From the NCBI RefSeq assembly GCF_963921235.1, contig NC_086097.1:109680001-109744000 (forward strand): a stretch of DNA of 64,000 nt. Direction: 5' to 3'. Shown here one piece after another: positions 2,406 through 64,000 of the stretch. Position 1 is the stretch's first letter, and every line of letters starts with the position of its first letter. Source of the stretch: Mobula hypostoma (Eukaryota). The notes beneath the pieces are model-generated. The model was given only the letters and a program-made list of their open reading frames with translations. It did not search any database and was not told the origin of the DNA. The position numbers and the translations under genes are program-made.

Positions 2406-2559
2406 TCTTGGGATTCTTGAGTGGAGCCCGCAGTGTCAGGTGCATGCAGCCAACACTTCCTGCTGTCAATGCCTGCTATCCTAAAAAAAATCCCCTTACT
2501 CATTCTGCTGGCTGGCTCCTACCCATGGGGAATAAATAAGATGGAATCAACTTGCTCTT

Positions 2560-2712
2560 CACTAGCTCTTCTTTCAGTTAGTCCTGACGAAGGGCCTCGG
2601 CCCGAAACGTCGACTGTACCTCTTCCTAGAGATGCTGCCTGGCCTGCTGCGTCCACCAGCAACTTTGATGTGTGTTGCTTGAATTTCCAGCATCTGCAGA
2701 ATTCCTTGTGTT
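2560..2712 (+). mobile_element. Penelope-like element 3' terminal fragment
   Basis: Near-identical to the reverse complement of 53407-53555. Confidence 0.85.
2580..2615 (+). ncRNA. Minimal type I hammerhead ribozyme motif
   Basis: AGTC-CTGACGA-A-GGGCC-TC-GGCCC-GAAA-CGTC-GACT: stem I AGTC/GACT, intact core, perfect stem II, GUC cleavage triplet. Confidence 0.8.
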
Positions 2713-2769
2713 CAATGGAAATAAACTGGCTTTCCCAGAACAATAAACAAGTCCAGGTGTGACCAACAG

Positions 2770-4341
2770 AAGGTTATTTTAATTGCAAAGAAACAATCCC
2801 AGTTGAGGTCAGAGACAGAATATGATGCACATCAGCTCCAACAAGTTTTGCAGGCCATCACCTCTACAATGCAAAACCTAACATCATGAATGGCTGTGAC
2901 GCTTCACTCCCAAATGAGCTCAACATCTTTTATACATGCTTTGAAAGGGAGAATAAAATGACACCCGTGTGAATCCTTGAAGCATCGGGTGACCCTGTGA
3001 TCTCTGTCGCAGAGGCCGACATCAGAACATCTATCAAGAGCGTGAACCCTCACATTCCTGATGGTGTTCCTGGGAGGACTCTGAAAATCTGTGCCAACCA
3101 AATTTTGGGAGCATTCAAGGACATCTTCAATCTCTCACTGCTGCAGTCGGAGTTTCCCACCAGCTTCAAAAGGGCGACAATCATACCAGTGCACAAGAAG
3201 GGCAGGGCGAGCTGCTTCAACAATCATCACCCAGCGGCACTCACGTCTACTATCGTGAAGTGCTTTCAGAGGTTAGTCTTGGCCAGGATCAACTCCTGCC
3301 TAAGCAAGGACTTGGACCTGCTGCAATTTGCCAATTGCCACAATAGGTCTATGGTGGATGCAGTCTCACTGGCTCTGAGTTCAGCTTTGGATCTCTTGGG
3401 CAATAGTAATACCTACATACTTCAAAGATGCATGCTTAGTCACTACTCTACTCTCACTACACCCATGACTGTGTGTCTAGGCACAGCTCGAATGCCATCT
3501 ATACATTTGCTGATGATAACTATTGTTGGTAGAATTTCAGATAGTGAGGAGGAAGTGTACAAGAGTGAGATAGGTCAGCTGGTTGAGTGGTGTCACAGCA
3601 ACAAACTTTGCACTAAATGTCAGTAAGACTAAGGAATTGATTGTGAACTTCAGGAAGGGTAAGTCAAGGGAACACACACCAGTTTTCATCGAGGGATCAG
3701 AAGTGAAAAGGGTGAGCAGTTTCAAGTTCCTGGGTGTCAGCATTTCTGAAGATCTACCCTGGGTCCAACATGTTGATGTAATCACAAAGAAGGCACGACA
3801 GCAGCTATATTTCATGAGGAGTTTGAGGAGAATCGGGTATGTTACCAAAGACTGTCACAATTTTTCACAGATGTACTGTGGAGAGCATTCTCACTGGTTG
3901 CATGTCTGTCTGATACGGAGGGCCTCTAGCCAGGGTTGGAAAATGCTGCAGAAAGTTGTAAACTCAGCCAGCTCCATCAAGGCATTGGCCTCCCCAATAT
4001 CCAGGACAGCTTCAAAAGGCGATTCTTTAAAAAGATTCTCCCCCATCACCCCCTTCTCAATGCTAACCTCGAGGAGGAGGTACAGGAGCCTGAAGACACA
4101 CTCCCAACATTTTAGTAGCAGCTTCTTCCACTCTGCCATGAAATTTCTGAATGGACAATGAACTCATGAACACTAACTCAATTTTTTGCATTATTTTTGT
4201 TTCTTTTTCGCATTATTTATTTAATTATTTTTTGACATATATTTCTAATTGTAATTTATAGTTTTTATTGTTATGTATTGAAATGTATTGCTGCCACAAG
4301 GCAACAAATTTCATGGCATATTAAACATGTTTCTGATTCTG
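2770..4341 (+). mobile_element. Rex1/Babar-like LINE, decayed RT region and 3' end
   Basis: ORFs 2997-3626 and 3583-4161 contain PDGVPGRTLK, DIFNLSLLQS, LNVSKTKELIVNFRK and FKFLGVSIS; GATTCT-type tail. Confidence 0.8.
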
Positions 4342-5480: not shown

Positions 5481-5674
5481 GTTGCACTAAAGTGGCCACT
5501 GAGTGTATATTTGTGATGGTCTGCTGCTGTTGCCCATCCATTTCAAGGTTTGACATGTCGTGCTCTTCTGCACTCCACCGTTGTAAGGTGTGGTTATCTG
5601 AGTTATTGTCACCTTCCTGTCAGCTTGAACCAGTCTAGCTATTCTCCTGTCATTGACAAAGCATTCTTCTCTTT

Positions 5675-7983: not shown

Positions 7984-10900
7984 AAGGTTAACCTCCAGGC
8001 TGAGTCGGTAGTGAAGAAAGCGAATGCAATGTTGGCATTCATTTCTAGAGGAATAGAGTATAGGAGCAGGGATGTGACGTTGAGGCTCTATAATGGTTGC
8101 ATAACACTAAGGGGCAGAAAATGCTGGTGGCAGTTGTGTACAGGCCACCTAACAGTAGTAGTGAGGTTGGGGATGGTATTAAACAGGAAATTAGAAATGT
8201 GTGCAATAAAGGAACAGCAGTTATAATGGGTGACTTCAATCTACATGTAGATTGGGTGAACCAAATTGGTAAAGGTGCTGAAGAAGAGGATTTCTTGGAA
8301 TGTATGCGGGATAGTTTTTTGAACCAACATGTCGAGGAACCAACTAGAGGGCAGGCTATTCTAGACTGGGTATTGAGCAATGAGGAAGGATTAATTAGCA
8401 ATCTTGTCGTGAGAGGCCCCTTGGGTAAGAGTGACCATAATATGGTGGAATTCTTCATTAAGATGGAGAGTGACATAGTTAATTCGGAAACAAAGGTTCT
8501 GAACTTAAAGAAGGGTAACTTTAAAGGTATGAGACGTGAATTAGCTAAGATAGACTGGCAAATGACACTTAAAGGGTTGACGGTGGATATGCAATGGGAA
8601 GCATTTAAAGATCGCATGGATGATCTACAACAATTGTTCATCCCAGTTTGGCAAAAGAATAAATCAAGGAAGGTAGTGCACCCGTGGCTGACAAGGGAAA
8701 TTAGGGATAGTATCAATTCCAAAGAAGAAGCATACAAATTAGCCAGAAAAAGTGGCTCACCTGAGGACTGGGAGAAATTCAGAGTTCAGCAGAGGAGGAC
8801 AAAGGGCTTAATTAGGAAGGGGAAAAAAGGTTATGAGAGAAAACTGGCAGGGAACATAAAAACTGACTGTAAAAGCTTTTATAGATATGTGAAAAGAAAA
8901 AGATTGGTTAAGACAAATGTAGGTCCCCTACAGACAGAAACAGGTGAATTGATTATGGGGAGCAAGGACATGGCAGACCAATTGAATAATTACTTTAGTT
9001 CTGTCTTCACTAAGGAGGACATAAATAATCTTCCGGAAATAGTAGGGGACAGAGGGTTCAGTGAGATGGAGAAACTGAGGGAAATACATGTTAGTAGGGA
9101 AGTGATGTTAGGTAAATTGAAGGGATTAAAGGCAGATAAATTCCTAGGGCCAGATGGTCTGCAACCCAGAGTGCTTAAGGAAGTAGCCCAAGAAATAGTG
9201 GATGCATTAGTGATAATTTTTCAAAACTCTTTAGATTCTGGACTAGTTCCTGAGGATTGGAGGGTGGCTAATGTAACTCCACTTTTTGAAAAAGGAGGGA
9301 GAGAGAAACCAGGAAATTATAGACCGGTTAGCCTAACATCGGTGGTGGGGAAACTGCTAAAATCAGTTATCAAAGATGTGATAACAGCACATATGGAAAG
9401 CGGTGAAATCATCGGACAAAGTCACCCCATGGATTTGTGAAAGGAAAATCATGTCTGATGAATCTCATAGAATTTTTTGAGGATGTAACTAGTAGTGTGG
9501 ATAGGGGAGAACCGGTGGATGTGGTATATTTGGATTTTCAAAAGGCTTTTGACAAGGTCCCACACAGGAGATTAGTGTGCAAACTTAAAGCACATGGTAT
9601 TGGGGATAAGGTATTGATGTGGATAGAGAATTGGTTGGCAGACAGGAAGCAAAGAGTGGGAATAAACGGGACCTTTTCAGAATGGCAGGCAGTGACTAGT
9701 GGGGTACCGCAAGGCTCAGTGCTGGGACCCCAGTTGTTTACAATATATAATAATGACTTGGATGAGGGAATTAAATGCTGCATCTCCAAGTTTGCGGATG
9801 ACACGAAGCTGGGCGGCAGTGTTAGCTGTGAGGAGGATGCTAAGAGGATGCAGGGTGACTTGGATAGGTTAGGTGAGTGGGCAAATTCATGGCAGATGCA
9901 ATTTAATGTGGATAAGTGTGAAGTTATTCACTTTGGTGGCAAAAACAGGAAAACATTATTATTTGAATGGTGGCCGATTAGGAAAAGGGGAGGTGCAATG
10001 AGACCTGGGTGTCATTATACACCAGTCATTGAAAGTGGGCATGCAGGTACAGCAGGCAGTGAAAAAGGCAAATGGTATGCTGGCATTTATAGCAAGAGGA
10101 TTGAGTACAGGAGTAGGGAGGTACTACTGCAGTTGTACAAGGCCTTGGTGAGACCACACCTGGGGTATTGAGTGCAGTTTTGGTCCCCTAATCTGAGGAA
10201 AGACATCCTTGCCATAGAGGGAGTACAAAGAAGGTTCACTAGATTGATTCCTGGGATGGCAGGACTTTCATATGATGAAAGACTGGATGAACTAGGCTTA
10301 TACTCGTTTCAATTCAGAAGATTGAGGGGGGATCTGATTGAAACGTACAAAATCCTAAAGGGATTGGACAGGCTAGATGCAGGAAGATTGTTCCCGATGT
10401 TGGGGAAGTCTAGAACGAGGGGTCACAGTTTGAGGATAAAGGGGAAGCCTTTTAGGACCGAGATTAGGAAAAACTTCTTCACACAGAGAGTGGTGAATCT
10501 GTGGAATTCTCTGCCACAGGAAACAGTTGAGGCCAGTTCATTGGCTATATTTAAGAGAGAGTTAGATATGGCCCTTGTGGCTAAAGGGATCAGCGGGTAT
10601 GGAGGGAAGGCTGGTACAGGGTTCTGAGTTGGATGATCAGCCATGATCATACTGAATGGTGGTGCAGGCTCGAAGGGCCGAATGGCCTACTCCTGCACCT
10701 ATTTTCTATGTATAAAGCACTGGTGAGATCTCACTTGGAGTACTGTGGGCAGTTTTGGTCTCCTTATTTAAGAAAGGATGTGCTGACGTTGGAGAGGGTA
10801 CAGAGAAGATTCACTAAATGATTCCAGGAATGAGAGGGTTAACATATGAGGAACATTTGTCCGCTCTTGGACTGTATTCCTTGGAGTTTAGAAGAATAAG

Positions 10901-11954: not shown

Positions 11955-12914
11955 TGGTGAGTGAGTTCAGTAATGGTATATCCTTGGGAATTCACCTTTT
12001 CTGGAATGTGTTCAGCTATTTTGTTTGGCTTTTGATTGAATTTGGACAAACACGAGGTGTTGCACTCTGAGGTTAAACCAAGGCAAGATTTGCTGAGTAA
12101 ATAGTGAAGACTTAAAAGAGTGTTGTAGAACAGAGTCTTAGGGTTACAAGCACATATTTATCAGAAAGTGCAAACACAAGTAGGAGGGGACCTTAACCAT
12201 TTCCTCTAGCAGCGTGTCCATACACTACCCTCTGTATAAAAAAAAATTGCCCTATTAAATCTTTCCCCTTTCATTTCAGACATATGTCCTCTAACTTTTG
12301 ATCCTCAACTCGGGAAAAAGACTCTGGTTAGAAGTAGAATTCCTTATCTTTTTGAAAAAAACATCCAGGAATCACGACCTCTAGCTCTGCCAATCTGGTA
12401 CTGCAAAGCTGGGTACTTCTTTCTTTGACCAGGACAGAGAGAATGAGCCAAGTGGCTTCCCCACATTTTCTATGGTGCCACATATGCTGCGCAGGAGGAG
12501 CCATAGGAATTCAGCTAGGGTTGCAGCAGGAAGTTGTTTGGAAGCTCTCTGTGAGGTGATGAGTTCAGACTTAGAATATTTGCTCATTGGAGAAGACCAG
12601 TCCATGTGCTCTTCCAGGCCGAAAGACGAGTTGATAACCTTCTTCCTTAAGAATAGATTTGAGTGATCTCCTTTAAGAGGCAGCGAACAAGATCATGAGA
12701 TGTGATTGAAATCGTTAGCAGCATCTTGCAAAAATACTGGTGCTAACAACTTTGGTGCAGCTGTGACTCAACCTCCACTACGAAAGCAGCAAATACCAGA
12801 CGGGTAATTTTGCTAGGCGTTATAAAGAGTTCAGAGATTTTAGTGAGGACAAAGTTTGAGTGATGTTTCTTTTAGTCGCATGTTTTCATAGGAAACAGAG
12901 CTAGTAAAAACTGA

Positions 12915-13091
12915 AACAACAGGAATTCTGCAGATGCTGGAAATTCAAGCAACACACTTCAAAGTTGCTGGTGAACGCAGCAGGCCAGGCAGCATCTCTA
13001 GGAAGAGGTACAGGCCTGAAACGTCGACTGTACCTTTTCCTAGAGATGCTGCCTGGCCTGCTGCGTTCACCAGCAACTTTGATGTGTGTTG
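12915..13091. mobile_element. Fold-back PLE-derived mini-element
   Basis: 13-bp TSD TAGTAAAAACTGA (12902-12914 / 13092-13104); 64-bp inverted arms 12950-13013 and 13028-13091. Confidence 0.9.
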
Positions 13092-13920
13092 TAGTAAAAA
13101 CTGATCTGAGGATAAATAGGAAATTCTGCCCGGTAAGGTTGAAGATTTCACCAGAGATGATTTTCTTTTTTACTGCAGTACTGTTAAATACCATTAGAGG
13201 TGATATAGTACTACAGAAAGGGGCTTAGAAGAACTGATGGAAAATGGAGATAAATTTCTCTGTTGTCCAAAAATGTGCAAAAACTCACTTCCAAACAGAC
13301 CACCGAATTACACGATAAAGGAAATTACATTAATAGAACTAGAAAATGAAGCCCCGGCACTGAATATTTAAGAGAAGGTATTCAAAAAAATTAAGTGTCA
13401 TAAGTTGATGGTCAAAGAAATGACACTCAAACACATGGCATCACAGCACATGGTACTCAAGCACATAATTTTTTGTAATGAGAAAGAAATTAGGTATGTC
13501 TGGAAAGACATGCTAGAGATATGACATACCATTAACCTCTACCTCTTTGAGTCAATGCAGTTGGAATTTGAGCTCCTCCACTATTATAATAATGACAGAG
13601 TCCAGCTGGTACTAACTATGTTTCTTGGTGCATCAGGACAGTCCCACCTGGTGCAATTTCATGACTGTCTCGTGCCAGCTGAAGCTGGCTGAAGCATGCC
13701 TACACTTCTTAAGTGGAGGTTTCCATTGTCTCTTATCTTAGGACCTCAGTGGAAGCAAGATTGAAAAGCAGCAGAGTGAGACCTTGCACTCTTCCAATGC
13801 CTTACATCTCCACATCTCATTAAATACCACTCTGAAATCCCAACAAATACTAATAGTAGCCATCACACTATCACACATTTACCTCCACTCTAAACCTCAA
13901 CGTGCAAATCTCACAAGTAG

Positions 13921-14134
13921 CACACATAAGATGCTGAAGGAACTCAGCAGCTCAGGCAGGACCTATGTAGAGGAATAAAGTGTCCGCATTTCAGGCCAAA
14001 AACTTCATCAGGACTTTCGGAACTAAACATCAACATTTCAATCCTCACCATAGACGCTGCCTGACCTGCTGAGATCCTCCAGCACGATGTGTGTGTGTGT
14101 TACTCTGGATTTCCAGCATCTGTAGAATCTCTTG
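13921..14134. mobile_element. Older fold-back PLE-derived element (second subfamily)
   Basis: GGAACTCAGCAG..GGCAG arm and its reverse complement CTGCCTGACCTGCTGAG; decayed hammerhead core on the minus strand at ~13985-14015. Confidence 0.7.
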
Positions 14135-15838: not shown

Positions 15839-15968
15839 CAGCAACACACATAAAAATTGCTGGTCAACGCAGCAAGCCAGGCAGCATCTGTAGGAAGAGG
15901 TACAGTCAATGTTCGGGCCGAGACCCTTTGTCAGGACTCCAGCATCTGTAGATTTCCTCGTCTTTGCA
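15839..15968. mobile_element. PLE mini-element with internal inversion
   Basis: 11-bp TSD TCTCACATGAC (15828-15838 / 15969-15979); inverted hammerhead-bearing segment followed by a sense 3' terminus. Confidence 0.8.
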
Positions 15969-17034
15969 TCTCACATGACTAATTCACACCCCCTTAAGCC
16001 TCCCTCCCTGGTCTCAGCTGAGGATGGAAAAGGAACTCAGGACACTCATGGTGCGGTACCACCTCTCCATCCCATTTGCCACATCCACTGCAACATCTAC
16101 AACCTCTATCACAGGTACTGAGCCAGGTGTCAACCTCACCCCTTCCCATGAATCAAAATGCTCACAACATCATTCCTGTGGATTTTGGAGCCCACTCCGA
16201 AGATGTCATTTCAGAGCCATGGTTCCCCTGCCTGCTCCCAGGCACAGATCACGTCTGGAGTGTTCCATGCTTGACACGAAGCTAAAAACTGTCTACCAAA
16301 TCATTTTCTTCTGGACTGAAAAGTGGATTGGAAAGAGTATATATATTCTTGGAGTTGAACATGAATTCCACAGAATCAGAGAGTTGCTGAGGAGCAGAAG
16401 GACCCATTCAACCCATGCAAGTCTCTGCCAGCTCCTAAAACAGCAAACTTGACAGTCCTGTTCCCTCAACTTGTAGACTCCGAACCACGACGTAAAACTT
16501 TACAAATAAATTGCAACTTGAAACACTTATTCCAGGGAAAATCAAGGGCACTATTTCAATGTAAGGAAGCTGCTGATGCAGCCCTCCTTTCATGCTTCTA
16601 GAGGGTTCTATTGTGAACACAGTCCTCAGTATGGTTAGTTGACTGGCTTTAGTGAATCCGTTGTCATTCTCACATGAGTGTTAGCAACTCCTGTTAGCTG
16701 AAGGGCAATTCATGTTTGGAGGTTGCAAGGCAAGTGAATTATTTCTAGATGAAAGAGTTTTCAATTTGTATTCTTGTAGGTTAAATTTCATTAGGTAATT
16801 TAACATCACCAGATGTACATCACCAAATGATAAAGGGCAAATGATATTTTAATGATTATAAGTAACGAAAAGCAACAACCATATAGTTGCCATGAAAATA
16901 GCTTTCATGTTAATGGGCATATGAAATCTGAGCTACTGTTACAGGGTAATTAAGATACTGACCTTCAGCTACGGTACAACAGACTAATGTTTGTGAAACA
17001 TTAAACACTTCATATTCCCTAAATATAAACTTAC

Positions 17035-17064
17035 CTGAGAACAGTCAACTAATAATGAGGATGG
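17035..17064 (-). CDS. Candidate 30-nt micro-exon (PSSLLVDCSQ)
   Basis: Consensus donor CAG|GTAAGT; weak acceptor TTTGCAG; phase compatible with 14831-14884. Confidence 0.15.
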
Positions 17065-17924
17065 CTGCAAATTTTAACCCAGATTATGTACAGTACTGTA
17101 AAAGAACACTGTGCAGTGGAGGGCGCTCTCAGCTTTTCAATGAGATTTGCAAAGCAGCCATAATCCAGAGAAATTGGAGGTGCTAAAATTGAGTTGTAAC
17201 ACATGAGTTGGCTGGAGCTGTTTGGTCCTGTAGCTGTTGCACAAGAAACTTCCCTGCACGTATGAAAATGGAAAATAAACTATTCAGGTCAGAGGACTCT
17301 GAGGCTCATCGTGGAAGGGGAATGTCAAGCAGAGCAAAATGATAGGAGGTGTAATAGAGGGACAGGATGCCAGGACTGTGTGGTGCCATCTGGGTGCCAG
17401 GGTTGATGATGTCTCAGAGCAGCTGCAGAATGTTCTCAAGAGGGCAGATGTGCAGACAGGGGTCATGGTGCACATTGGTACTATAACATAGATGGAAAGG
17501 GGCAAGAAGTACTAAAGTTTGGGAGTTAGGGAAGAGGCAGAAAAGCAGGATGTCGATTATTCCTGGTGCCATGTGTTAATCAGGGCAGGAATATAGAGAT
17601 AGAACGGATGAACATGTAGCGAAGAAATTGGTGCAGGGGCCATGGTTTCAGGTCCTTGGACCATTGCACCACTTTTTTGGGGGGCAGAGATGACAATAGA
17701 GGGATAGGCTGTGCATGAACTGGAGGGAAACCAATATCCTGGTCAGGACATTTGATAGTTCTATTGGGAAGGTTTAAGTTAGTTTGGCAGGGGGTTGGGA
17801 AACAAAGTACCAGGTTAGAAGTGGAGGGCTTGAGAGGAAGGTAGATGTCAGGGCCAGTAAGAAGAGGGAGGAGTGAGATAATAGTCATAATGGGTCAAAG
17901 TGTGTGTATTTTAATACTAAGAGT

Positions 17925-24255: not shown

Positions 24256-24699
24256 CACGGCCTCCTCCTGTGCCAAGATGAAGCCATCCTCAGGGCAGGG
24301 CAGCTAATATTCTCTCTGGATAGTCTCCAACCTGATGGTATGAATATTGATTTCTCCTTCCAGCAATTTTTTCCCTCCTCCTCCCCTCTTCTTCTATTCC
24401 CCACTTACCTCTTCTCAGCTGCCTATCACTTCCCTTCCTCCTTCCCATTCTCCTATGGTCCACTCTCCTCCCTTTTCAGATTCCTTCCTCTCCAGCCCTT
24501 TATCTTTCCCACCCACTTGGATTCACCTATCACCTTCTAGCTGGCTTCCTTCCCTCCCCCACCACATTTTTATTCTGTCATCTTCCCCTTCCTTTCCAGT
24601 GCTGATGAAAGGTTTCGGCCCAAAACAGTGACCGGTTATTTATTACCATAGATACTGCCTGACCTGCTGAGTTCCTCCAGCATTTTGTGTGTGATGCTT
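24256..24699 (+). mobile_element. PLE 3' fragment (end of GIY-YIG, pyrimidine-rich 3' UTR, decayed hammerhead)
   Basis: HGLLLCQDEA..SLQPDGMNIDFS; TSD AGGGTTT(A/G)TTT (24245-24255 / 24700-24710). Confidence 0.8.
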
Positions 24700-28844: not shown

Positions 28845-29690
28845 CAGATGCAAGAGATTCTTTTAGTGCTCGAAATCTTAAGCAGCACACACAAATGTTG
28901 CAGGAACTTAGCAAGTCAGGCAGCACTGATGGAGTGAAAGAAACAGTCAAAGTTTCAAGCCAAGATCATTAGAACTGGGAAGGAAGAGGGCAGAAGGCAG
29001 GATAAAAAGACTGTGGGAGAAGGAGTATAATTTGGTAGGAAACAGGTGAGTTCAGGTGAGAGGGGGAAGGTAGGTGGGGGATGTGAGATGAAAGGGAGAA
29101 GCTAGAAGATGATAGATGGAAGAGGCAAAGGGCTGAAGAAGAAAGAATCTGATAAGAAAGCACAATGGACCATGGAATAAAAGGGAGGAGGTAGGGAATT
29201 AGAAGAGGGTGACAGGCAGATTTTGAGGATGGGAGAATAACATTGACTACATCTAGTGCTCCAGTGTTGCTTCCTCTGCTTCAGTGAGAGCCCACGCAGA
29301 CTGGGGGATCATTTCACTGAGCACCTTTGCTCCATCCACTGCAAAGTCAGCATCTCCCAGTGGCTATGCATTTCCATTCCCACATTGACATGGCTATCCA
29401 CGGCTTCCCCTGCTGCCACAATGAGGCCACAAGCAGAGTGGAGGAGCAACAACTCATATTCCATCTGGGTAGTCTCCAACCTGAGGGCATTAATATTGCC
29501 TCCTCTAGCTTCTAGTGACCACTCCACTCTGTTTTCATATTCACCCCCACCACCTTGGTTTTCCCTCATTCTGGTGACCCTCTCACCCCTTCTCTTTTTT
29601 CACACTTTGCCCTTACAACCTGCTCATCACCTCCCTTTGGTTCCCACCTCCTTCCCTTTGTTCCCTGGTCTAGTTTCCAAGAGGTTTCAC
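28845..29690. mobile_element. Inverted pair of old PLE 3' fragments
   Basis: Minus-strand 3' UTR at 28845-29215; plus-strand GIY-YIG remnant (RLGDHFTEHL, EEQQLIFHLGSLQP) at 29250-29520. Confidence 0.7.
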
Positions 29691-29804
29691 CTCCCTTGTG
29701 GACTCTCTTCTGTTCTTACTTATATTGTAATCATTTCATTTGCATCTTTTTGGAAATTTGACCTTTGAAGGCAGTAGAATGTGAGGTGAGGGTGCAGGGT
29801 GGTG

Positions 29805-30690
29805 TTGGAATCAGAATCAGAATCAGATGTAATATCACTGGCAAATGTTGCAATACAATGCAATACATAATAAATAAACGATAAATTACAATAAATAAAA
29901 ATAAAAATAAATTGAATAAGTAATGCAAAAATAGAGGGGGAAAATACCAAGGTAGCGTTCTTGAGTTCATTGTCCATTCAGTAATCTGATGGCAGAGGGG
30001 TAAAAGCTGTGCCTGAAACATTGAGTGTGCACCTTCAGACTCCTGCACCTCTTCCTTGATGGTAGAAATGAGAAGAGGGCTTGCCTTGGGTGATTGTGAT
30101 CCCTAATGATGGATGCCAAATTTTTGAGGCATTGCCTTTTGAAGATGCCCTCAATGCTGGAGATACTGGTGCCCATGTCAGAGCTGGTTGAGTTCATAAT
30201 TTTCTGCAGCATTTTCTGATCCCTTGCAGTGGTCCCTCCATACCAGACAGTAATGCTACCAGTTAGAATGCCTCCACAGTACACCTGTGGAAATTTGCGA
30301 GAGTCTTTGGTGATGTTCTAAGTATCCTCAAGCTCCGAATGCAATTTCGCCTTTGTCAAGCCCTTTTTTTGTAATTTCATCAATATGTTGAGCCCAGGAT
30401 AGATCTGCAGAGATTTTATCACCCAGGAACTTGAAGCTGCTGATCCCCTCAAAAAGGACTGGTGTGTGTTCCCTCAACTTGCCCTTGCTGAAATCCACAA
30501 TCAATTTCTTGGTGATACTGACGTTGAATACAAGGTTGTTTTTGCAACAGGGCTCAACCAGCTGATCTATCTTGCTCCTGTATGCCTCCTTGCCACCATC
30601 TGTAATTCTGCCAGTGATAGTTGTGTTATCGGCAAATCTAAGGATGCAGTTTGAGCTGTGCCTAGCTGCACGGTCAGGGGAAGAGTGTGC
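29805..30690 (-). mobile_element. Rex1/Babar-like LINE 3' part
   Basis: RFADNTTI, HPRQALFSFLPS..FRHSFYPSAIRLLN; (GATTCT)n tail. Confidence 0.8.
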
Positions 30691-30700
30691 TTGTACTGGA

Positions 30701-31472
30701 AACAACAGGAATTCTGCAGATGCTGGAAATTCAAGCGACACATAAAAATTGCTGGTGAACGCAGCAGGCCAGGCAGCATCTCTAGGAAGAGGTACAGTTG
30801 ACGTTTCAGGCCGAGACCCTTCATCAGGACTAACTGAAGGAAGAGTGAGTAAGGGATTTGAAAGTTGGAGGGGGAGGGGGAGATCCAAAATGATAGGAGA
30901 AGACAGGAGGGGGAGGGATGGAGCCAAGAGCTGGACAGGTGATAGGCAAAAGGGATACGAGAGGATCATGGGACAGGAGGTCCGGGAAGAAAGACAAGGG
31001 GGGGGGTGACCCAGAGGATGGGCAACAGGTGTATTCAGAGGGACAGAGGGAGAAAAAGGAGAGTGAGAGAAAGAATGTGTGTATAAAAATATGTAACAGA
31101 TGGGGTACGAGAGGGAGGTGGGGCAGGTGTTGTTCCTCCAACCTGAGTGTGGCTTCATCTTTACAGTAGAGGAGACGGTGGATAGACATGTCAGAATGGG
31201 AATGGGATGTGGAATTAAAATGCGTGGCCACTGGGAGATCCTGCTTTCTCTGGCGGACAGAGCGTAGATGTTCAGCAAAGCGGTCTCCCAGTCTGCGTCA
31301 GGTCTCGCCAATATATAAAAGGCCACATCGGGAGCACTGGACGCAGTATATCACCCCAGTCGACTCACAGGTGAAGTGTTGCCTCACCTGGAAGGACTGT
31401 TTGGGGCCCTGAATAGTGGTAAGGGAGGAAGTGTAAGGGCATGTGTCGCACTTGTTCCGCTTACACGGATAA
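30701..31472 (-). mobile_element. Young 5'-truncated Penelope-like element
   Basis: 13-bp TSD TGCTTGTACTGGA (30688-30700 / 31473-31485); near-identical to 53407-54245 apart from a ~60-bp deletion at the ORF end. Confidence 0.92.
30796..30831 (-). ncRNA. Minimal hammerhead ribozyme motif
   Basis: AGTC-CTGATGA-A-GGGTC-TC-GGCCT-GAAA-CGTC-AACT; one stem I mismatch. Confidence 0.65.
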
Positions 31473-32831
31473 TGCTTGTACTGGAGTTGTGTGTGCTGTA
31501 AGTGTGCATGTTTGTGTGTGCTAGTGTGAAAAAGGAGAATTCTGTTGTTCTGGAGCTCAGCTCGATATATCTATTGAAATCATAGAATTTCTTGCACCAC
31601 TGTGCTCTGCTATTTTACAGGTGTGCCAAATGGACATTAGCACTGAACGCAATGATAGTTTAGCATACCAAAACAAGGGTGAAATCTAATTTTGAGGGCA
31701 AGATGCCTAGAGCATGCTGTCTAGCATTAAATCATTTCAGTATTGAGATATTTATTAAACAAAGGATCATCTGGAGACTTGTAACAAAGGAAAATGAAAT
31801 TATCAGGAGTCATGAAGACTGCATACTTACTGAAAGCTTTCCTTCTTTTTAATCCCATCGGTTCATTGAGCATCATTATGATTAGTAGCGTACATTAGCC
31901 TATTGTGGAGAATCAGTGTTTTTATGCTTCTTTTTATTTAAAATATCTGTACAGGCATCAGTAACACAGGTGGCACATTTTGCTGAGTGCCTCCTGTGAA
32001 ACTCCCTTATCAATAAATTTGCCCAAAAAAATCACATTGACAGCTGTTTTCATTAAGCAATTTATTAGTGACATATAAAATTGCTGCTATTAGTATTCGT
32101 TTCAGCAACCAAGTGCTCAGAGCACTTAGGAATTCTTTCAGGATTTGGTCAATATATCATCTCTAAATCAATCATAGTTTTGTGTACCAGACAGTATTGT
32201 TCCTCTTGCTCATTTTGTACTGGAATTTCTTTCCGCTAATGGAGTGCTTTTGAAAATACTCAGCAAAGGCAAAATGCATAATCCTGCAAGCTGATTATTG
32301 CTGTTTTTAGACAATTGCAGAATATCGTCATCACTGACAATACTCGCATTTATTGTCTGTCCCTCATGGCTAATAAATTGAGCAGGCAGTTAAGAGTCAA
32401 CTACATTGGTGGATTCAGTGAGGTCAGACATGGTTCAGATAGAAAATTCTCTTCCTTTAAGTATACTGGTAAACCAAGTGAGATTTTATAACAATCCAGT
32501 GATTTGTTGGTCACTATTCCTGCTAGTTGATTTTAGATCTAGATTAATGAGATATATTTAAATATCCATTGATGTGAGAGGATATAGCTCTGTGTTCACT
32601 CCTTGTGCTACATTCAGAGCACTGACTGGTGCCACCTGTCCATACTTACTTAGTCACCTGCTAATCGCATGTACCACCTGGACCCTACAGCCAGATGGTG
32701 AAGTTTCAGCAGCGACTTGCCCTGATGCAAGGTGGTGTCGAGGGCATATCATTGGAATGCCCTGACAGTATTTCACTGAAGGCAAAGCCATGGTGGAGCT
32801 CACTTCATTAAAAACAATTATAACATTTTGA

Positions 32832-33048
32832 ACACTAGAAATTCTGCAGATGCTGGAAATCTAAAGCACACAAAATGCTGGAGGAACTCAGCAGGTTAGG
32901 CAGCGTCTATGGAATTGAGTAAACATTGACAATTTGGGCTGAGCGCTTCCTCGGGACTGGAGAAGGGTCTCGGCCCAAAACGTTGACTGTTTCTTCAATT
33001 CCATAGATGCTGCCTAACCAGCTGAGTTCCTCCAGTATTTTGTGTGTT
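32832..33048. mobile_element. Fold-back PLE-derived element
   Basis: Arm CACACAAAATGCTGGAGGAACTCAGC..TATGGAATTG and its reverse complement; partial hammerhead AAGGGTCTCGGCCCAAAACGTTGAC. Confidence 0.8.
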
Positions 33049-33339
33049 TTACGATAAGATTTTGAAAAGGATTTATAACATCCAAAAATAATTTTTAAAT
33101 TAATCCAGCGTGATTTTCAATGTTAACCTGAAAAAGTAACAGCTTCTCTGTCCATGGACACTGGATGCTCACAACATTTTCTGCTTTCACCTCTGTTACT
33201 ATTCTTCACTAAACAAACAAAGGCAGCATAATAAGGTTTATGGAGCCAACTAAAACATAAACAGTACTGCCTGGGACACATCTGACATATTGTCGCTCAG
33301 GATGCATTTGGTTGTGTCACCTCACATGTTGTTTCATGG

Positions 33340-35430: not shown

Positions 35431-35499
35431 CTGGACTTTGTTGTCAGATTTTTAGATGGCGACGAGAGGCATATGGGAGTATGCTAGTGTTTGGATCCT

Positions 35500-36930
35500 C
35501 AATCCACTCTTTAAGAAGGGAGGAAGGAAAAAGAAAGGAAATTATAGGCCAGTTAGCCTAACCTCAGTGGTTGGGAAAGTGTTGGAGTCTATTATTAAGG
35601 ATGAGGCTTTGAGGTACTTGGAGACTAATGATAAAATAAATCAAAGTCAGCATGGTTTCTGTAAAGCGAAATCTTGTCTGACAAACCTGTTAGAGTTCTT
35701 CAAGGAAGTAACAAACAGAGTGGACAAAGGAGAGGCAGTGGATGTCATTTACTTGGGTTTTCAGAAGGCATTTGATAAGGTGCCACACTTGAAGCTGCTT
35801 AACAAGATCAAATTCTGTGACGTTACAGGAAAGCTACTGGCATGGATGGTGGAATGGCTGACAGGCAGGAGGCAGCAAGTGGAAATAAATGGGGCTTTTT
35901 CTGGTTGGCTGCCAGTGTCTAGTAGTGCTCCTCAGGGGTCAGTATTGGGATCTCTGCTTTTCGCATTGTTTGTTGATGATTTAGATCATGGAATTGTTGG
36001 CTTTGATGCAAAGCTTATGGATGATATGAAGATAGGTGGTGGGGTTGGTAGTGCTGAGGAAGCAATGCGACTGCAGCAGGACTTAGATAAATTGGAAGAA
36101 TGGGCAAAAAAGTGGCAGATGGAATACAGTGTTTCAAAATGTACAATAATGCATTTTGGTTAAAGGATCACCAATGCGGATGATTATCTAAATGGGAGAA
36201 CGTTTAAACAACAGAGGTGCAGAGGGACTTACAGAGTCCTTGTGCAAGACTCCCAGAAGATTAATTTACAGATTGAGTCCATCTTAAAGAAAACAAATGC
36301 AATATTGGCATTTATTTCAAGGAGAATAGAATATCAAGTCAAGGAGTTAATGCTGAGCCTTAATAAGACAGTAGTCAGGCCGCACTTGGAGCATTGTCAA
36401 CAGTTTTGGGCCTCATATCTCAGAAAGGATGTATTGTCATTGGAGTGAGTCCAGAGGAGGTTTACAAGGATGATTCTGGGAATGAAGAGGTTAACATATG
36501 AGGTGCGTTTGGCAGCTTTGGGCCTGTGCTCACTGGAATTTAGAAGAATGCGTGGGGATCTCATTGAAATCTACCAAATTTTGAAAGGTCTAGATAGGGT
36601 GGATGTGGAGAGGATATTTCCTCTGGTGGGGGTATCAAGAACTAAAGGACACAGCCTCAAAATTAAGTGGCAACCTTTTAGAACAGAGGTAAGGAGGAAT
36701 TTTTTTAGCCAGAGAATAGTGAACCTGTGGAATGCTTTGTCACAGACTGCAGTGGGGGCTAAATCCATGCGTATATTTAAGGTGGAAGTTGATAGTTTCC
36801 TGATTGGTCAGGGCATCAAGGATAAGGTGAGAAGGCAGGTGTCTGGGGCTGAGTGGGATCCGGGATCAGCCATGATGGAATGGCAGATCAGACATGATGG
36901 GCTGAATGGCCTAATTCTGTGCTTATGTAT
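35500..36930 (+). mobile_element. CR1 LINE RT and 3' end (decayed)
   Basis: ORF 35456-36163 contains [19 protein letters not shown] and PQGSVLG. Confidence 0.9.
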
Positions 36931-36934
36931 TATG

Positions 36935-38150
36935 AGTTGTGTTGCAACAGCAACTTTACACTCAAGGTCAGCAAGACCAGGGAATTGATTATGGACTTGA
37001 GGAAGGAGAAGTTGGGAGAACACACATCTTTCCTCATCGAAGGGTCAGCAGAGGAAAGGGTGAGCAACTATAAGCTCCTGAGATCAACATCTGAATGCAT
37101 CTATCCTGGACCCAACATATTGATGCAATCACAGAGAAGGCGTGGCAGCAACTATATTTCATTAGGAGTTTGGAGATACTTGGTATGTCACCAAGGACTC
37201 TGGCAAATTTCCACAGATATACCATGGAGAGCATTCTGATTAGATGCACTCCGACTGGTTGCATCCATTGGTAGGAGCCTCTAAATTCAGGATCAAAAGA
37301 GGCTGCAGAGGGTTATATCCAGCTCCAGCAGGGGCAGAAGCCTCCCCACCTCAAGGACATTTCAAAAGGTGGCTCCTCAAGAAGGCAGCATCCATCATTA
37401 AGGAGCCTCACTGTGACAGAGAGTGCTCAGTAAATGCACTCCATACACACACACACACACACACACACACATACCCAACCATTACCATTGCCTTGTCTTT
37501 CTGCTGTTGTTATACTGGGAGTATGCCCTTCATTGTCTTCCCCTGGTTCATTGTAATAATGGATCCTAAAGGGTTGGTTGGTTTTACGGTGCTTTTCCCA
37601 CCATACATGGTGAAATATTCATTTCTCTAGTAATGGGGATGTGTAAATGTGTATATATTGTTTGAGTACTGTACTTAAGATAGATACTTCTGTTTATTTT
37701 GTTATATGATTGTAACTACATTATGAGGTGCATCATATGTGTATCCATATGTAGTCTTAAGTTATCTTTGTGGGTAGTTAAAGATGGTCTGTCCTGTTGC
37801 CTAATAAACTGGGCAATTGCTCTTGGTAGCAGGGAGAGAGAACCACCCTGGATATGGTATGGAGCTACTTATTGTGTTTTCTGGCAGATATCGTGACACT
37901 CACCACCCAGGGCATGCCCACTTCTGATTATTACCATCAGTGAGGAGGGACAGGAGCCTGAAGATGCACATTCAATCTTTTAGAACAGCTTCTTCTCCAC
38001 TATCAGATTTCTGCACAGTCCACTATCTCGCTAGTTTGCTCTCTTTATTTATGCTATTTCTTATTGTATCTCAGTTGGAATTTTTATGTCATGCACTGTA
38101 CTGCTGCCACAAAACATCATAAGTCAGTGATAATAAACCTAATTCTGATA
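36935..38150 (+). mobile_element. Rex1/Babar-like 3' fragment split by a solo LTR
   Basis: KVSKTRELIMDLRK; ASIIKEPH|HPGHA is continuous across the LTR. Confidence 0.75.
37412..37898 (+). mobile_element. Solo LTR (487 bp)
   Basis: TG...CA ends; 5-bp TSD CTCAC (37407-37411 / 37899-37903); AATAAA at 37803; internal (CA)n. Confidence 0.85.
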
Positions 38151-41240: not shown

Positions 41241-42494
41241 CGAACTCAAACTGAGTCCTCCTTGGTTGCACTGAATGACTATGATGCATACATCATCTGT
41301 GCCCTGTTCATGCCCTTCACTCTCCACAAAACATTTCAGACCTGCCTTCCTGGCCATTTGAGCACAATGCTGACCTCGTCCACCCAGTCCGCTGGAGCTG
41401 ACTTTGCCTGCTAGTACAGGCATGTCCCCATCTCACCTGGTTTAGCCCACCTGATGAAATGATGTGCTGGGGCGTGCCTGCTGTCACATGCAAACAGCTA
41501 CTTGGAGTCACAGGTAGAAGCTGAGTACCTGCTGTCATTACGTACTAAGAACAGAACAGTGTGCAACACTCCAAATGGAATGAGTAAATGCAGGTACAAT
41601 CTTTGCTTATTTTTGTACTCTAAACCTCCTGTAATCACGATCAAGTAATGTGAAGTGCAAAAGCTCCTGAAGACAATAGAGTAAGATGGTTGCAGCCTTT
41701 TGATTCAGCTTTATTCACCTTTCCCTTGCTTCTCACCCTCCACCACATACACTTCATCACTTCCCATTCCCCTGCACTCTCTCCCCTCACCAGAAACATG
41801 AGCAGCTTTGTTCCTATACCTGGTTCCCATGCCATCACCCCCTTTGTCACACTCACTTTCACACACACTCCAATATTTTTCCTTACCCAGAGTCAGCTGT
41901 GCACCCAATAGCTCAGCATATCCTTCATCCCTTTGCTTGCTTTGCAATGAAACTCACCCAAAGGTCATTCTCAAGGCACGTGAAGTCTCGATGTGCGTTC
42001 AGAGAGCCATGGGACCTCAGCTAATTTCTGGACATATATGTCTTCAGATTATTCCCAGTGACTCAAGTATTAGTCTTTAAAGATCTTTTCATCTTTAAAG
42101 TATTATGGTTCTTTTGTGTGTTGCAGGGCAAATTAGCAAATCCTTAGCAACAAGGAACCAATTTCCCTGATGTCCATTCCCCTCACTTAGTCATAATATT
42201 CATCCTCTCAGAATTAAATTTCATGTACAAGCCATTGGTCGGGAGAGGTTGGGAGGTGGGAGGCCTTACAGTAAATGCTGTAAATGTTAACATGTGTGGG
42301 CAGTGGTGGCCATAATCTGAAATCCACTCTAAGGCTTCCCCATGAATGCCCAGGACATAATTGTAAGCATCATACAATCCTGTGACACTAGAGTTAACAG
42401 CTTCAGAGAGAATAGGCCTTTGGTTGTTCACTATGCAGAATGGATCACTGTAGCTCTTTATCTAGAGTCAGAGCCATGGACTCATACAGCACAA

Positions 42495-45626: not shown

Positions 45627-46749
45627 ATGTGGCATATAATTCAGGCATAATCTATGCCATGGTATACATTCTGCAGTTCAGGACAGTTCTTTTCCAACTC
45701 TGATGAAGAGCCACCAGCCTGAAAAAGCACAGCGGAACGCAGCTCTGAACTCTGACACCTTGAGCTGTAATAGCATCGCACTAGCCATGACATTACCATA
45801 GCGCCCCTGTATCACACGCGTACAGACTTTATGCTATACCTCCTTGATCTTTAATCTTTCTCCTCAACTCAGAACCAGAACTACCCCATCTTTAACAACT
45901 TGTGAAGAAGGTTCAATATAATGGCCAAATCTAGTAACGATAGTCAGTCTGAAGTCCATATAAACAACTTATGACTGTCTAAGATGCAGATTTGTTTTAT
46001 GGTTCAAGTTCAAGTTTGATTGCCATTCAACCTTACATGAATATCCATGAATACAGCCAAATGAAACAGTGCTAGTCTGAGGCCAAGGAACAAACCACAG
46101 AATCCACATTCATACACAGCACAAGGTACATATCGTATATTTAAGATAGCAAGTGCATATACGGTATCAGTAAAATACAGTCACATAAGATAGTCCAAGA
46201 CACTGAGTTCATGAACATTGCAGAAATCTGCAGTCCACCTGACCACAATACAGCTTGTCTTCTGCCAAGCCAACACTGGAGAGCAGCAGGGTCTTATGAT
46301 CATAAGAAATACATTTAAAAAGGACAATAGCACCTTTCGTTGACCCAGTAGAAGCTGCTGCAATCGAACACACTGCCATCTTACCAGAAGATGTGGATTT
46401 ACAATGAAAGCAGAAAATGTTGTCAATATTCTGCAGGTTGGAAGTATCTGTGGAGATATAAATAGGGTTAACATTTTCAGGTCAATATCATCTGATCCTG
46501 TAAGGTATTTCTAGCAATTTCTGGTTTTCTTCCATATTTCCATTATAATTTTGAACAGGTCTGGTAACTTTCTGAGAACCTTCTCCAGAAGGTTCAAGTG
46601 TTGCGGTTGAGTATCTGTGGAAATAAAGGTGTCACCTTTGTTACACAAACTTCTTGGGATGCACTGCATCATTTGGTCAATGAAGATATTTGTAGGTGAA
46701 TTAAACCTATGTACACCTTGAAGTGAATACGCAGCTCCTAATTCTCATT

Positions 46750-53395: not shown

Positions 53396-53503
53396 ATAGG
53401 ACAGTAAACAACAGGAATTCTGCAGATGCTGGAAATTCAAGCAACACACATGAAAGTTGCTGGTGAACGCAGCAGGCCAGGCAGCATCTGTAGGAAGAGG
53501 CGC

Positions 53504-53539
53504 AGTCGACGTTTCAGGCCGAGACCCTTCGTCAGGACT
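53504..53539 (-). ncRNA. Minimal type I hammerhead ribozyme motif
   Basis: AGTC-CTGACGA-A-GGGTC-TC-GGCCT-GAAA-CGTC-GACT; core intact, stem II with G-U pairs. Confidence 0.8.
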
Positions 53540-53833
53540 AACTGAAGGAAGAGTGAGTAAGGGATTTGAAAGCTGGAGGGGGAGGGGGAGATGCAAAATG
53601 ATAGGAGAAGACAGGAGGGGGAGGGATGGAGCCGAGAGCTGGACAGGTGATAGGCAAAAGGGGATACGAGAGGATCATGGGACAGGAGGTCCGGGAAGAA
53701 AGACGGGGGGGGGGTGACCCAGAGGATGGGCAAGAGGTATATTCAGAGGGACAGAGGGAGAAAAAGGAGAGTGAGAGAAAGAATGTGTGCATAAAAAAAG
53801 AGTAACAGATGGGGTACGAGGGGGAGGTGGGGC

Positions 53834-55585
53834 CTAGCGGAAGTTAGAGAAGTCAATGTTCATGCCATCAGGTTGGAGGCTACCCATACGGAATATAAGG
53901 TGTTGTTCCTCCAACCTGAGTGTGGCTTCATCTTTACAGTAGAGGAGGCCGTGGATAGACATGTCAGAATGGGAATGGGATGTGGAATTAAAATGTGTGG
54001 CCACTGGGAGATCCTGCTTTCTCTGGCGGACAGAGCGTAGATGTTCAGCAAAGCGGTCTCCCAGTCTGCGTCGGGTCTCACCAATATATAAAAGGCCACA
54101 TCGGGAGAACCGGACGCAGTATATCACCCCAGTCGACTCACAGATGAAGTGATGCCTCACCTGGAAGGACTGTTTGGGGCCCTGAATGGTGGTAAGGGAG
54201 GAAGTGTAAGGGCATGTGTAGCACTTGTTCCGCTTACACGGGTAAGTGCCAGGAGGGAGATCAGTGGGGAGGGTTGGGGGGGACGAATGGACAAGGGAGT
54301 TGTGTAGGGAGCGATCCCTGCGGAATGCAGAGAGAGGGGGGGAGGGAAAGATATGCTTAGTGGTGGGATCCCGTTGGAGGTGGCGGAAGTTACGGAGAAT
54401 AATATGTTGGACCCGGAGGCTGGTGGGGTGGTAGGTGAGGACCAGGGGAACCCTATTCCTAGTGGGGTGGTGGGAGGATGGAGTGAGAGCAGATGTACGT
54501 GAAATGGGGGAGATGCGTTTAAGAGCAGAGTTGATAGTGGAGGAAGGGAAGCCCCTTTCTTTAAAAAATGAAGACATCTCCCTCGTCCTAGAATGAAAAG
54601 CCTCATCCTGAGAGCAGATGCGGTGGAGACGGAGGAATTGCGAGAAGGGGATGGCGTTTTTGCAAGAGACAGGGTGAGAAGAGGAATAGTCCAGATAGCT
54701 GTGAGAGTCAGTAGGCTTATAGTAGACATCAGTGGATAAGCTGTCTCCAGAGACAGAGACAGAAAGATCTAGAAAGGGGAGGGAGGTGTCGGAAATGGAC
54801 CAGGTAAACTTGAGGGCAGGGTGAAAGTTGGAGGCAAAGTTAATAAAGTCAACGAGTTCTGCATGCGTGCAGGAAGCAGCGCCAATGCAGTCGTCGATGT
54901 AGCGAAGGAAAAGTGGGGGACAGATACCAGAATAGGCACGGAACATAGATTGTTCCACAAACCCAACAAAAAGGCAGGCATAGCTAGGACCCATACGGGT
55001 GCCCATAGCTACACCTTTAGTTTGGAGGAAATGGGAGGAGCAAAAGGAGAAATTATTAAGAGTAAGGACTAATTCTGCTAGACGGAGCAGAGTGGTGGTA
55101 GAGGGGAACTGATTAGGTCTGGAATCCAAAAAGAAGCGTAGAGCTTTGAGACCTTCCTGATGGGGGATGGAAGTATATAGGAACTGGACATCCATGGTGA
55201 AAATAAAGCGGTGGGGGCCAGGGAACTTAAAATCATCGAAAAGTTTAAGAGCGTGAGAAGTGTCACGAACATAGGTCGGAAGGGATTGAACAAGGGGTGA
55301 TAAAACAGTGTCGAGGTATGCAGAAACGAGTTCGGTGGGGCAGGAGCAAGCTGAGACAATAGGTCAGCCAGGACAGGCAGGTTTGTGGATCTTGCGTAGG
55401 AGGTAGAAACGGGAAGTGCGGGGTGTGGGAACTATAAGGTTGGTAGCAGTGGATGGGAGATCCCCTGAGCGGATAAAGTCGTTGATAGTGTGGGAGACAA
55501 TGGCCTGGTGCTCCTTAGTGGGGTCACGATCGAGCGGTAAATAAGAGGAGGTATCCGCGAGTTGTCGCTGTGCCTCGGCAAGGTA
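53834..55585 (-). pseudogene. PLE reverse transcriptase / GIY-YIG endonuclease ORF with one in-frame stop at 55364-55366
   Basis: MDVQFLYTSIP, GVAMGTRMGPSYA, FLRYIDD, CKRNKCYTC, VIY..YIGETRRRLGDRFAEH; G*PIVS where GRPIVS is expected. Confidence 0.92.
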
Positions 55586-55592
55586 AGTAGGA

Positions 55593-62409: not shown

Positions 62410-62563
62410 ACCTCCTTCCCCTCCCCCCACCTTTTTATTCTGGCATCTTCTCCCTTCCTTCTCAGTCCTGATGAAGGGCCTCAGCCCGAAACATCGACTG
62501 TTTATTCATTTCCATAGATGTTGCCTGACCTGCTGAGTTCCTCCAGCATTTTGTGTGTGTTGC
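62410..62563 (+). mobile_element. PLE 3' terminal fragment with a hammerhead (62463-62500)
   Basis: 8-bp TSD TAAGGAAT (62402-62409 / 62564-62571); CAGTC-CTGATGA-A-GGGC-CTCA-GCCC-GAAA-CATC-GACTG. Confidence 0.8.
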
Positions 62564-64000
62564 TAAGGAATTCAATTGTTCAATTTCAAATGAATAGATA
62601 GGTGCCAGGCCTTAAAAGAGTTTCACTGTTGCTAACATAATAGAATGCTATAAAACCCAAAGAGCATTCAGAGAGTGTTTTACCTTTAATCTCAGCAGGG
62701 AAATAGAATGTGTAAGCCAAGCTGGAAAGTAGGGATAAAAATGTATAACAGAGAAGCAACCTGGAATCGGGTCTGAGTAAGTGTAACATTAACACTCGGT
62801 GTGTTGCTATAACAACATTGAATGATCACATGCATATTTGAGTCCACGTGGTGAAGTTCTAAAGTCAGGCTGTTAGCAAGGGGTCTAGAGCACAAACACT
62901 ATTTCTCAACAGGAGAGGAAGGCGGATAGGTCAACATCCACTCTACTTCTCCTAGCAAATGGTCACAGTACAGTATTGGCACAGACCAAGAAATAGGTCA
63001 CCTGGCTGCGTTTCTTTTGGGGAACGGTGCAGAACATTAAGGGGAAGGAAAGCAGCAGAACATAGCAGGCTTAGTGCAACACACTGAAAGCTGCAGAGGA
63101 AATCTGAACTCGGGCTGGGGGAGGGGGTGATATGCAGAGAGTCTCTCTATGACACACATGGTGTCTGCAGAAGCTGTGCCAGGCAGTTTACAACTTCAAG
63201 CTTGTCATTGCACAGCTCTGGCCTCAAACGGTGCAATTTAGATGCTATTCCCTTCCACGATTAAAACCTGCTTCATTTTCATATGGGTCATTAGTACTTG
63301 CTATTAGAACACACTGCTTCTATTAACAGACTGGTTTTAATTTATAAATTTATTTAAGCAATGCAGATGCCACTAGCATTAGATTGCCAGACAGGGGAGA
63401 AGAAAAAAAACAATGGTTTTCCAAAGTGATTCCATTATTTTACTGCTCTGCAAATTCAGGGCCTTTTAATCTAGTTATAAACATTAAGGGCTTTTAATGC
63501 AATTTCACTTTGCTGCAGCACTAGACTATTGGGTGCAATTTAATTCCAATAACACCAGATGAAGTTCTTCACTAAATTTTGGAGCAGAGTTCAATGATCA
63601 TTTCATTAACAGAAAATAAAACAAATTTTAAAGGATATCGGGAAAGCTATTACACAGCACGCTCCTCTCCGTTTCACTGTGAAGTCTGAGATTCAAACCC
63701 GTCCAAAGAGCATTACACCACTCCAACCATGATTTCTTTCATTCTTTCAATTGTTGGCCTTTGTTCCTTTTAGTTCATTATGTCTTTGCCCAGAACATAA
63801 TCAGTTTCAGAAACAGCAGAATTAACTGTTATATTTTCAGCAAATATGTTAAACTGTAACTATAACTATGGGATTAATGCATCCAGATATGCATATGCAA
63901 TAAGTTATTGATAGCCAAGGCATTATAGAACCAAGGAAAATTCATGAGGTTAGCCAATGATTGTAAGCACAGTCATGCTGCCAAAAGGGGACCCTCTAGG

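Follow-up and report, generated by a model that had tools for sequence, protein, structure and literature searches.

Penelope-element insertions in the window

The window (the whole 64-kb stretch of Mobula hypostoma DNA that was analysed) holds 10 separate 5'-truncated insertions of a Penelope element (PLE), with target-site duplications, inverted pairs and a tail of ~35 nt. The insertions, and the tail as it appears in the longest of them, are the following:

2547..2713, plus strand: solo PLE 3' end of the young subfamily, tailed; no convincing target-site duplication
12914..13091, both strands: inverted pair; perfect 13-bp duplication at 12902/13092
13917..14134, both strands: inverted pair of the older subfamily; dead hammerhead at ~13980-14015 (minus); the junction is the first base of stem I
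15840..15965, both strands: inverted pair; dead hammerhead at 15904-15938 (minus) and a tail-only plus segment, joined at the first base of stem I
24256..24699, plus strand: old 5'-truncated PLE, tail-less; ORF end, UTR and dead hammerhead at 24598-24635
28851..29700, both strands: old PLE remains; minus pLTR segment at 28851-29025 and plus ORF-end fragment at 29284-29512
30700..31472, minus strand: 5'-truncated PLE insertion; perfect 13-bp duplication at 30688/31473
32831..33050, both strands: inverted pair of the older subfamily; dead hammerheads on both strands
53406..55587, minus strand: longest PLE insertion, 5'-truncated within the ORF, without an upstream pLTR; duplication at 53397/55588
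53406..53441, minus strand: PLE tail of ~35 nt, defined by the 3' end difference; loose ends at 53405/53406 in public contigs
62415..62564, plus strand: solo tail-less PLE 3' end of the older subfamily; short duplication at 62402/62564

Perfect 13-bp target-site duplications were found at 2 of the 10 insertions and one-mismatch duplications of 10-13 bp at 6, and 2 had no convincing one; the search was run without a null control, and duplications of 10-11 bp are weak. Pairwise identity is 89-93% within the young group and 68-85% among the older copies. Truncation at the 5' end, inverted copies and a 30-40-nt tail at one end make up a described PLE pattern (PMC8557442; this and the other papers cited below are used from partial texts). 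Each of the four complete inverted pairs combines one tailed and one tail-less end. The insertions end 3' either about 65-69 or about 99-102 nt past the cleavage site of the hammerhead, and the tail is the gap between these two positions; we attribute the tailed and tail-less ends to two RT start sites, as in the Anolis element (PMC11167929).

The longest insertion reads, on its minus strand, as ORF, ~295-nt pyrimidine-rich UTR, hammerhead, ~65 nt and tail, and the one at 30700..31472 contains the GIY-YIG end with an internal deletion, the UTR, the hammerhead and the tail. Several copies are just 130-220 nt long, and animal retrozymes are reported to be pLTR derivatives that occur also in one chondrichthyan (bioRxiv 10.64898/2026.07.22.740005), which would suit a non-autonomous SINE or retrozyme family of its own, distinct from truncated PLE ends. 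We find this origin scarcely credible: it is largely refuted by the ragged 5' ends, which range from inside the ORF to inside the tail, and it is further opposed by the three insertions that run unbroken from ORF sequence through to the motif and by the lack of any tandem array of it. Among the 10 insertions there is no same-strand tandem and no two direct same-strand pLTRs, and no head-to-tail run of at least two hammerhead units was found in the window.

As truncated PLE ends, the copies comprise 14 pLTR segments. The cleavage site is spanned by 12 of the 14, and therefore their templates were uncut or re-ligated there. Cleavage-defined 5' ends were considered and rejected, with none of the 14 segments starting exactly at the site; one, the tailed minus segment of 12914..13091, begins 2 nt past it, and the tail-less plus segment of that pair carries the 3' half of the hammerhead.

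Public contigs depart from the element at 53405/53406 in 134 records of X1, 63 of X5 and 3 of X9, and alignment on a 531-bp element end gave 12,977 and 7,034 contigs in two runs and 36 and 26 in two others. A very high genome-wide load had been proposed from the sequence of the window; a large family is plausible on these records, although the contig totals give no copy number. Repeats internal to the window make up about 38% of it, mostly LINE-type RT fragments with an APE endonuclease, which we take to be CR1-like; these self-repeats include 8094-10711, 35456-36988, 38989-41292 and 55671-58429, and 8098-10711 is ~95% identical to 56044-58429.

The ORF and clade of the element

The protein-coding part of the element is preserved best in the longest insertion:

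53834..55587, minus strand: broken PLE ORF with RT, linker and GIY-YIG; in-frame stop at 55363-55365

The hammerhead at 53504 sits ~300 nt 3' of this RT/GIY-YIG ORF, whose 5' end is cut off near 55587. Pfam gave weak RVT_1 and GIY-YIG matches under the curated cut-offs. We obtained 1036 homologues, of which the closest are proteins of rays and sharks (M. hypostoma, the best, with 94% identity, Hypanus with 77-88% and Rhincodon with 70%), ahead of many at ~50%; the viral contig collection yielded no relative of the element. In the 509-aa piece, residues 376-384 form a CX4CxxC linker ahead of the endonuclease, and a CX2-5CxxC linker marks Neptune and Nematis as against Penelope/Poseidon (PMC8557442). 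This linker motif, which is common to Nematis, and the match to a coral hammerhead described below suggest that the element is Neptune-like.

An ORF start within the pLTR was also considered and discarded, as five element-end translations compared with 120 homologues gave one read-through match, to one gene model. Two NCBI gene models match the PLE ORF: P0002 (Hypanus), named 'divergent protein kinase domain 1C isoform X2', matches it at 77%, and P0004 (Mobula), named 'chitinase domain-containing protein 1 isoform X1', at 87%. These models would be annotation artefacts or exonised copies.

Hammerhead copies in the window

The 36-base repeat in these insertions is a minimal type I hammerhead with a loop-less ACGU helix III and one extra base after the core. 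The copies that keep the whole core, and one further string, are as follows:

2580..2615, plus strand: intact minimal type I hammerhead; predicted cleavage after C17 at 2611
30796..30831, minus strand: full-core hammerhead; the stem I pair beside the cleavage site is a C.A mismatch
45700..45724, plus strand: core-like string, a candidate copy that the earlier note lists as decayed
53504..53539, minus strand: intact minimal type I hammerhead; predicted cleavage between 53508 and 53507
62464..62499, plus strand: full-core hammerhead of the older subfamily; helix III palindrome broken (ACAU)

The copies at 2580-2615 and 53504-53539 have stem I AGUC/GACU, CUGACGA, the extra A and a stem II whose 4 bp are capped by a CUCG loop, continue with GAA, the palindrome ACGU and C17, and are the only fully intact ones in the window. 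A strict descriptor, in which stems I and II have at least 4 bp each and helix III is palindromic, matched these two and gave no match in any of 200 dinucleotide shuffles. Without the palindrome requirement the matches rose to 3 (shuffle mean 0.015), and with one stem I mismatch tolerated to 4 (shuffle mean 0.095). The bare core CUGANGA-N8-30-GAAA occurs 14 times in the window against 6.5 +/- 2.5 by chance, which is weak evidence. In the window, the Rfam covariance models matched no hammerhead at E<=5, as would be expected because helix III is absent.

Twelve segments overlap the motif. The U-H triplet and the type I order with CUGANGA and GAAA were found in four of them (2580, 30796, 53504 and 62464), the same four that keep the whole core, and the palindromic ACGU without a helix III loop in all but the last. 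The extra A, which had already been noticed, lies between A9 and 10.1 in all 12 aligned rows (4 window copies and 8 relatives), and the pair 10.1-11.1 is G-C in 10 rows and G-U in 2 (53504 and 30796).

The earlier note had described three intact cores and about nine copies on both strands. Its count of intact ones is too high, as the stem I 3' strand at 30796-30831 is AACU instead of GACU. What it called an AUC variant at 62463-62500 is a full-core copy, in which a G-to-A change at a CpG has turned ACGU into the non-palindromic ACAU. Stem II had been given 4-5 bp with variants that keep pairing; it has 4 bp, since a fifth pair would leave a 2-nt loop, and the variants come from C-to-U changes facing a G, in one case at a CpG, with no two-sided change among window copies.

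The copies named as decayed at 13985, 15904, 24597 (here 24598) and 32963 do belong to the family, with core lesions or half of the motif missing; at 15904-15938 (minus) the lesions are a change of G8 to A and the deletion of one core A. The string at 45700-45724, named along with them, has no stem I and no U-H triplet, and gave no plus-strand nhmmer match at E<=10 and no covariance-model match at E<=5. In local comparison the string is borderline: of 2054 background segments, 1 attains its best score (33), and 11-54 attain the scores that it has against three other copies. A faint minus-strand pLTR-like match at 45641-45724 (E 0.52) adjoins this string, which may reflect a very old inverted pair or coincidence. 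Five segments had been overlooked: 12914-13013 (minus), 13013-13091 (plus), 14016-14134 (plus), 32831-32962 (minus) and 28851-29025 (minus), the last with a deletion in the hammerhead core.

The start of stem I

In two inversions of the window the joint is exactly the first base of stem I (14015 and 15938), and in a third it lies 4 nt upstream. Strand-switch joints at the corresponding position of the longest insertion, 53538/53539, recur among the public-contig joints listed (53441/53538, 53496/53538 and 53539/53900); this is also the position where the subfamilies stop matching. In the young and old subfamilies alike, a polypyrimidine tract ends in YAG at the 5' strand of stem I and forms a candidate 3' splice site:

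53538-53560, minus strand: polypyrimidine-YAG tract
62445-62465, plus strand: polypyrimidine-YAG tract
24575-24599, plus strand: polypyrimidine-YAG tract
28975-29010, minus strand: polypyrimidine-YAG tract

In D. virilis, an intron of the PLE is described as running up to the 5' end of helix I. In the ray family, the AG in the 5' strand of stem I might be the 3' splice site of an element intron whose splicing would re-make stem I and gate the ribozyme, at a position that would also be an inversion hot spot, a proposal that we consider improbable. If it were true, host pre-mRNAs could be affected by intact dispersed copies that serve as splice acceptors, and a germ-line PLE protein could turn these copies into protein-switched cutters of such transcripts.

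Relatives, covariation and decay

We used 80 metagenome loci that encode relatives of the ORF and scanned downstream of the 52 whose match neared the ORF end. The same extra-A minimal motif was present in 8 of the 18 loci with at least 40% protein identity, 2 of which have less than 50 nt of downstream sequence. These eight motifs lie 105-139 nt past the ORF match and have ACGU in seven cases and AUGU in one (L005). In three of the eight loci the motif closely resembles the hammerhead that the PMC4209133 supplement gives for an A. digitifera Neptune element.

Across PLE families, two-sided changes occur at 4 of 4 pairs of stem I and 1 of 4 of stem II, whereas none was found within the window. 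The covariation score was 0.642 versus 0.286 +/- 0.043, with none of 500 shuffles as high and slid controls at or below 0.127; the alignment counts 19 cells over both stems, and the core is nearly invariant. The set consists of 12 hand-picked, related sequences from about six families, chosen for carrying the motif, and the score is to be read as support and not as a probability.

These results bear on whether the motif might be kept mainly for a non-catalytic role, as a hairpin or protein landmark near the RT starts or as a 3' splice site and translation start, with cleavage vestigial. The AG in the 5' strand of stem I after the polypyrimidine tract, present in both subfamilies and comparable to the D. 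virilis intron end, fits such a role, as do the uncut or re-ligated templates. So do published observations that Anolis hammerhead mutants have no effect on in vitro insertion (PMC11167929) and that Naiad PLEs thrive without canonical hammerheads (PMC8557442). Against it, families that differ by ~50% in protein have almost the same core but freely exchanged stem I sequences, a pattern in keeping with selection on catalysis; moreover, none of the 8 aligned relatives has the AG, and the public-contig joints listed include no GT-AG joint. We judge this role unlikely, and it overlaps in part with the explanation that we favour, that of a conditional ribozyme in the source element.

The window copies are decaying, with changes enriched at CpG sites. 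Measured against 2580 as the reference, 11 copies (45700 left out) show 30 CpG transitions in 105 CpG-site observations versus 29 changes in 248 other sites, a tally in which subfamily differences are counted repeatedly. The motif has 5 CpGs in its 36 nt, and CpG hits fall at G8, G12, 16.2 and 1.1.

Among the relatives, one locus (L001:1005-1133 and 3536-3663) is a near full-length element with an inverted upstream pLTR and a minimal hammerhead in both repeats. In 25 of the 34 scanned loci below 40% identity, CUGANGA, a stem II and GAAA lie 237-698 nt past the ORF match, usually without the extra base (e.g., L022:2960, L050:3261, L038:4529 and L074:1945). CC follows GAAA in 23 of these 25 motifs, at least three of four stem I pairs lie directly beyond CC in 18 of 25, and the mean is 3.04 of 4 stem I pairs right after CC versus 0.56-2.12 at other offsets. 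On sequence grounds this distant motif would be hammerhead-like without U16.1 and smaller than the published min-HHR consensus; L048 instead fits the usual ACCGGU form. A literature search for a Penelope hammerhead without U16.1, with Lunse et al. outside its scope, found nothing.

Folding and effects on the host

The lowest-energy fold of the 2580 monomer is -15.7 kcal/mol, versus -11.7 kcal/mol for the open core, and is a rod that pairs core bases G5-G8 with C15.2-C17 around the cleavage site. When 30-100 nt of native flank are included, the probability of stem I is at most 0.05 in the three young copies and at least 0.9 at 62464. Strand-swapped double hammerheads came out 9-15 kcal/mol above two folded monomers in all 10 pairings of the four copies, by nearest-neighbour energies that take no account of Mg2+ or of tertiary contacts in the core. 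All 8 relatives are predicted to form a rod of this kind, without covariation of its own (161 of 500 shuffles as high), and therefore it follows from the core sequence; as a selected, core-blocking switch it was rejected.

No host gene was identified among 300 of the 383 unique-region frames of at least 45 aa that were compared with Pfam, a search that also took in some of the other frames, but not the shortest, and in which short exons could be missed. The only matches in these frames were sub-threshold ones to TSP1, dynein AAA_6 (16962-17183), Tc3 transposase, MbtH and APE endonuclease; the dynein match was dropped as a host gene for want of a PDB match. A weak Tc1/Tc3 transposase match, under the cut-off, lies at 5490-5672 on the minus strand (E 0.0012).

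It had been suggested that the copies could act on any host transcript crossing the region. In its fullest form, intact dispersed copies would cut host pre-mRNAs through trans or long-range ACGU dimers or with the PLE protein, and would amount to a genome-wide load or regulator. The two intact copies in 64 kb have mutually compatible stems, the family is plausibly very large, and the Anolis PLE hammerhead cleaves in vitro when given the element's protein, and only then (PMC11167929). In the window, though, only 2 of 12 copies are intact, each strand has two full-core copies whose nearest same-strand partners are 22.7 kb and 59.9 kb apart, same-strand tandems are absent, and the frames scanned revealed no host gene to act on. 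The ACGU duplex alone has -1.7 kcal/mol, an active dimer is disfavoured, and the copies decay through core positions. In published work, a single S. mansoni min-hammerhead was not cleaved and dimers were cleaved weakly, and no RNA-seq ends were reported at the Anolis site (PMC11167929). We therefore did not retain the suggestion, and regard such cutting of host transcripts as very improbable; the dispersed window copies are probably inert leftovers.

Proposed mechanism

We consider it very likely that the motif is the minimal hammerhead of a Neptune-like PLE pLTR, conditional in its source element, and that the solo copies are inert, decaying by-products. The anatomy of the motif, its association with the ORF, the covariation across families and the pattern of decay are shown by the analysis; cleavage, activation by a dimer or a protein, and the inertness of solo copies are proposed.

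A Neptune-like Penelope element would have spread in the ray genome in at least two waves. Its source, a tandem or partial tandem of a kind absent from the window, would retain the hammerhead by selection as a normally-off ribozyme and a conditional cutter of tandem transcripts. A lone motif, unable to close helix III, would fall into the rod that pairs G5-G8 with C15.2-C17, and cleavage after GUC would occur only via a strand-swapped double hammerhead formed through ACGU or with the element's protein, as published relatives suggest. RT would start ~65 or ~100 nt downstream of the cleavage site, on RNA uncut there, and would often stop or invert near the hammerhead, leaving short solo or inverted pLTR pieces with target-site duplications. 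Inserted copies without a partner would then decay, with changes enriched at CpG sites.

To the question of what PLE hammerheads do in vivo (PMC11167929, PMC8557442) the window adds one small point, namely that copies were made from RNA uncut, or re-ligated, at the cleavage site. Their role would be accessible to statistics in a vertebrate genome where a young family is very large.

Comparison with known systems

Our literature search found no paper on this ray family; it left most subscription papers and bioRxiv supplements outside, and these may list shark or ray examples. Minimal hammerheads (min-HHR) of metazoan PLEs were described by Cervera and De la Pena (2014; PMC4209133), and the earlier note's reading of the motif, a minimal type I hammerhead of PLE ends whose helix III is palindromic, has no loop and is proposed to act in dimers, agrees with that consensus. 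The window motif and the published one have in common the type I order, a short stem I, CUGANGA plus an extra base, G10.1-C11.1, GAAA, the loop-less palindromic 15.2/16.2, a U-rich 5' flank, the location in the pLTR, and mostly single copies from truncated elements together with opposite-strand pairs. The ACGU layout and a stem II of 4 bp recur in its A. digitifera Neptune entry. The ray family differs in its own stem I, AGUC/GACU, and its CpG-rich motif, and the species in Fig. S3 and Table S1 of that paper include no shark or ray. Small PLE hammerhead variants with a very short helix III and dimer cleavage were reported by Lunse et al. (RNA Biol 14:1499, cited in PMC6765202), and the window motif resembles them in its very short helix III as far as the description in PMC6765202 goes.

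The Anolis carolinensis Poseidon element (PAc; Frangieh et al. 2024, PMC11167929) likewise carries a pLTR hammerhead upstream of two RT starts that define a 30-40-nt tail, and its template is uncut RNA, as in the window; PAc belongs to the Poseidon clade, which lacks the Cys linker (PMC8557442) that the window ORF has. Neptune PLEs (Craig et al. 2021, PMC8557442) share the RT, the CX2-5CxxC linker and GIY-YIG, as well as truncation, inversion and the tail at one end; compared with them, the window has no full-length or tandem copy, and the linker is shared by Nematis. Animal non-LTR retrozymes (bioRxiv 10.64898/2026.07.22.740005) also derive a type I hammerhead from PLE pLTRs, but consist of head-to-tail tandem units, whereas the window copies are solo or inverted. 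Set beside these systems, the window motif is an ordinary one that extends the published class of PLE hammerheads to a ray genome.
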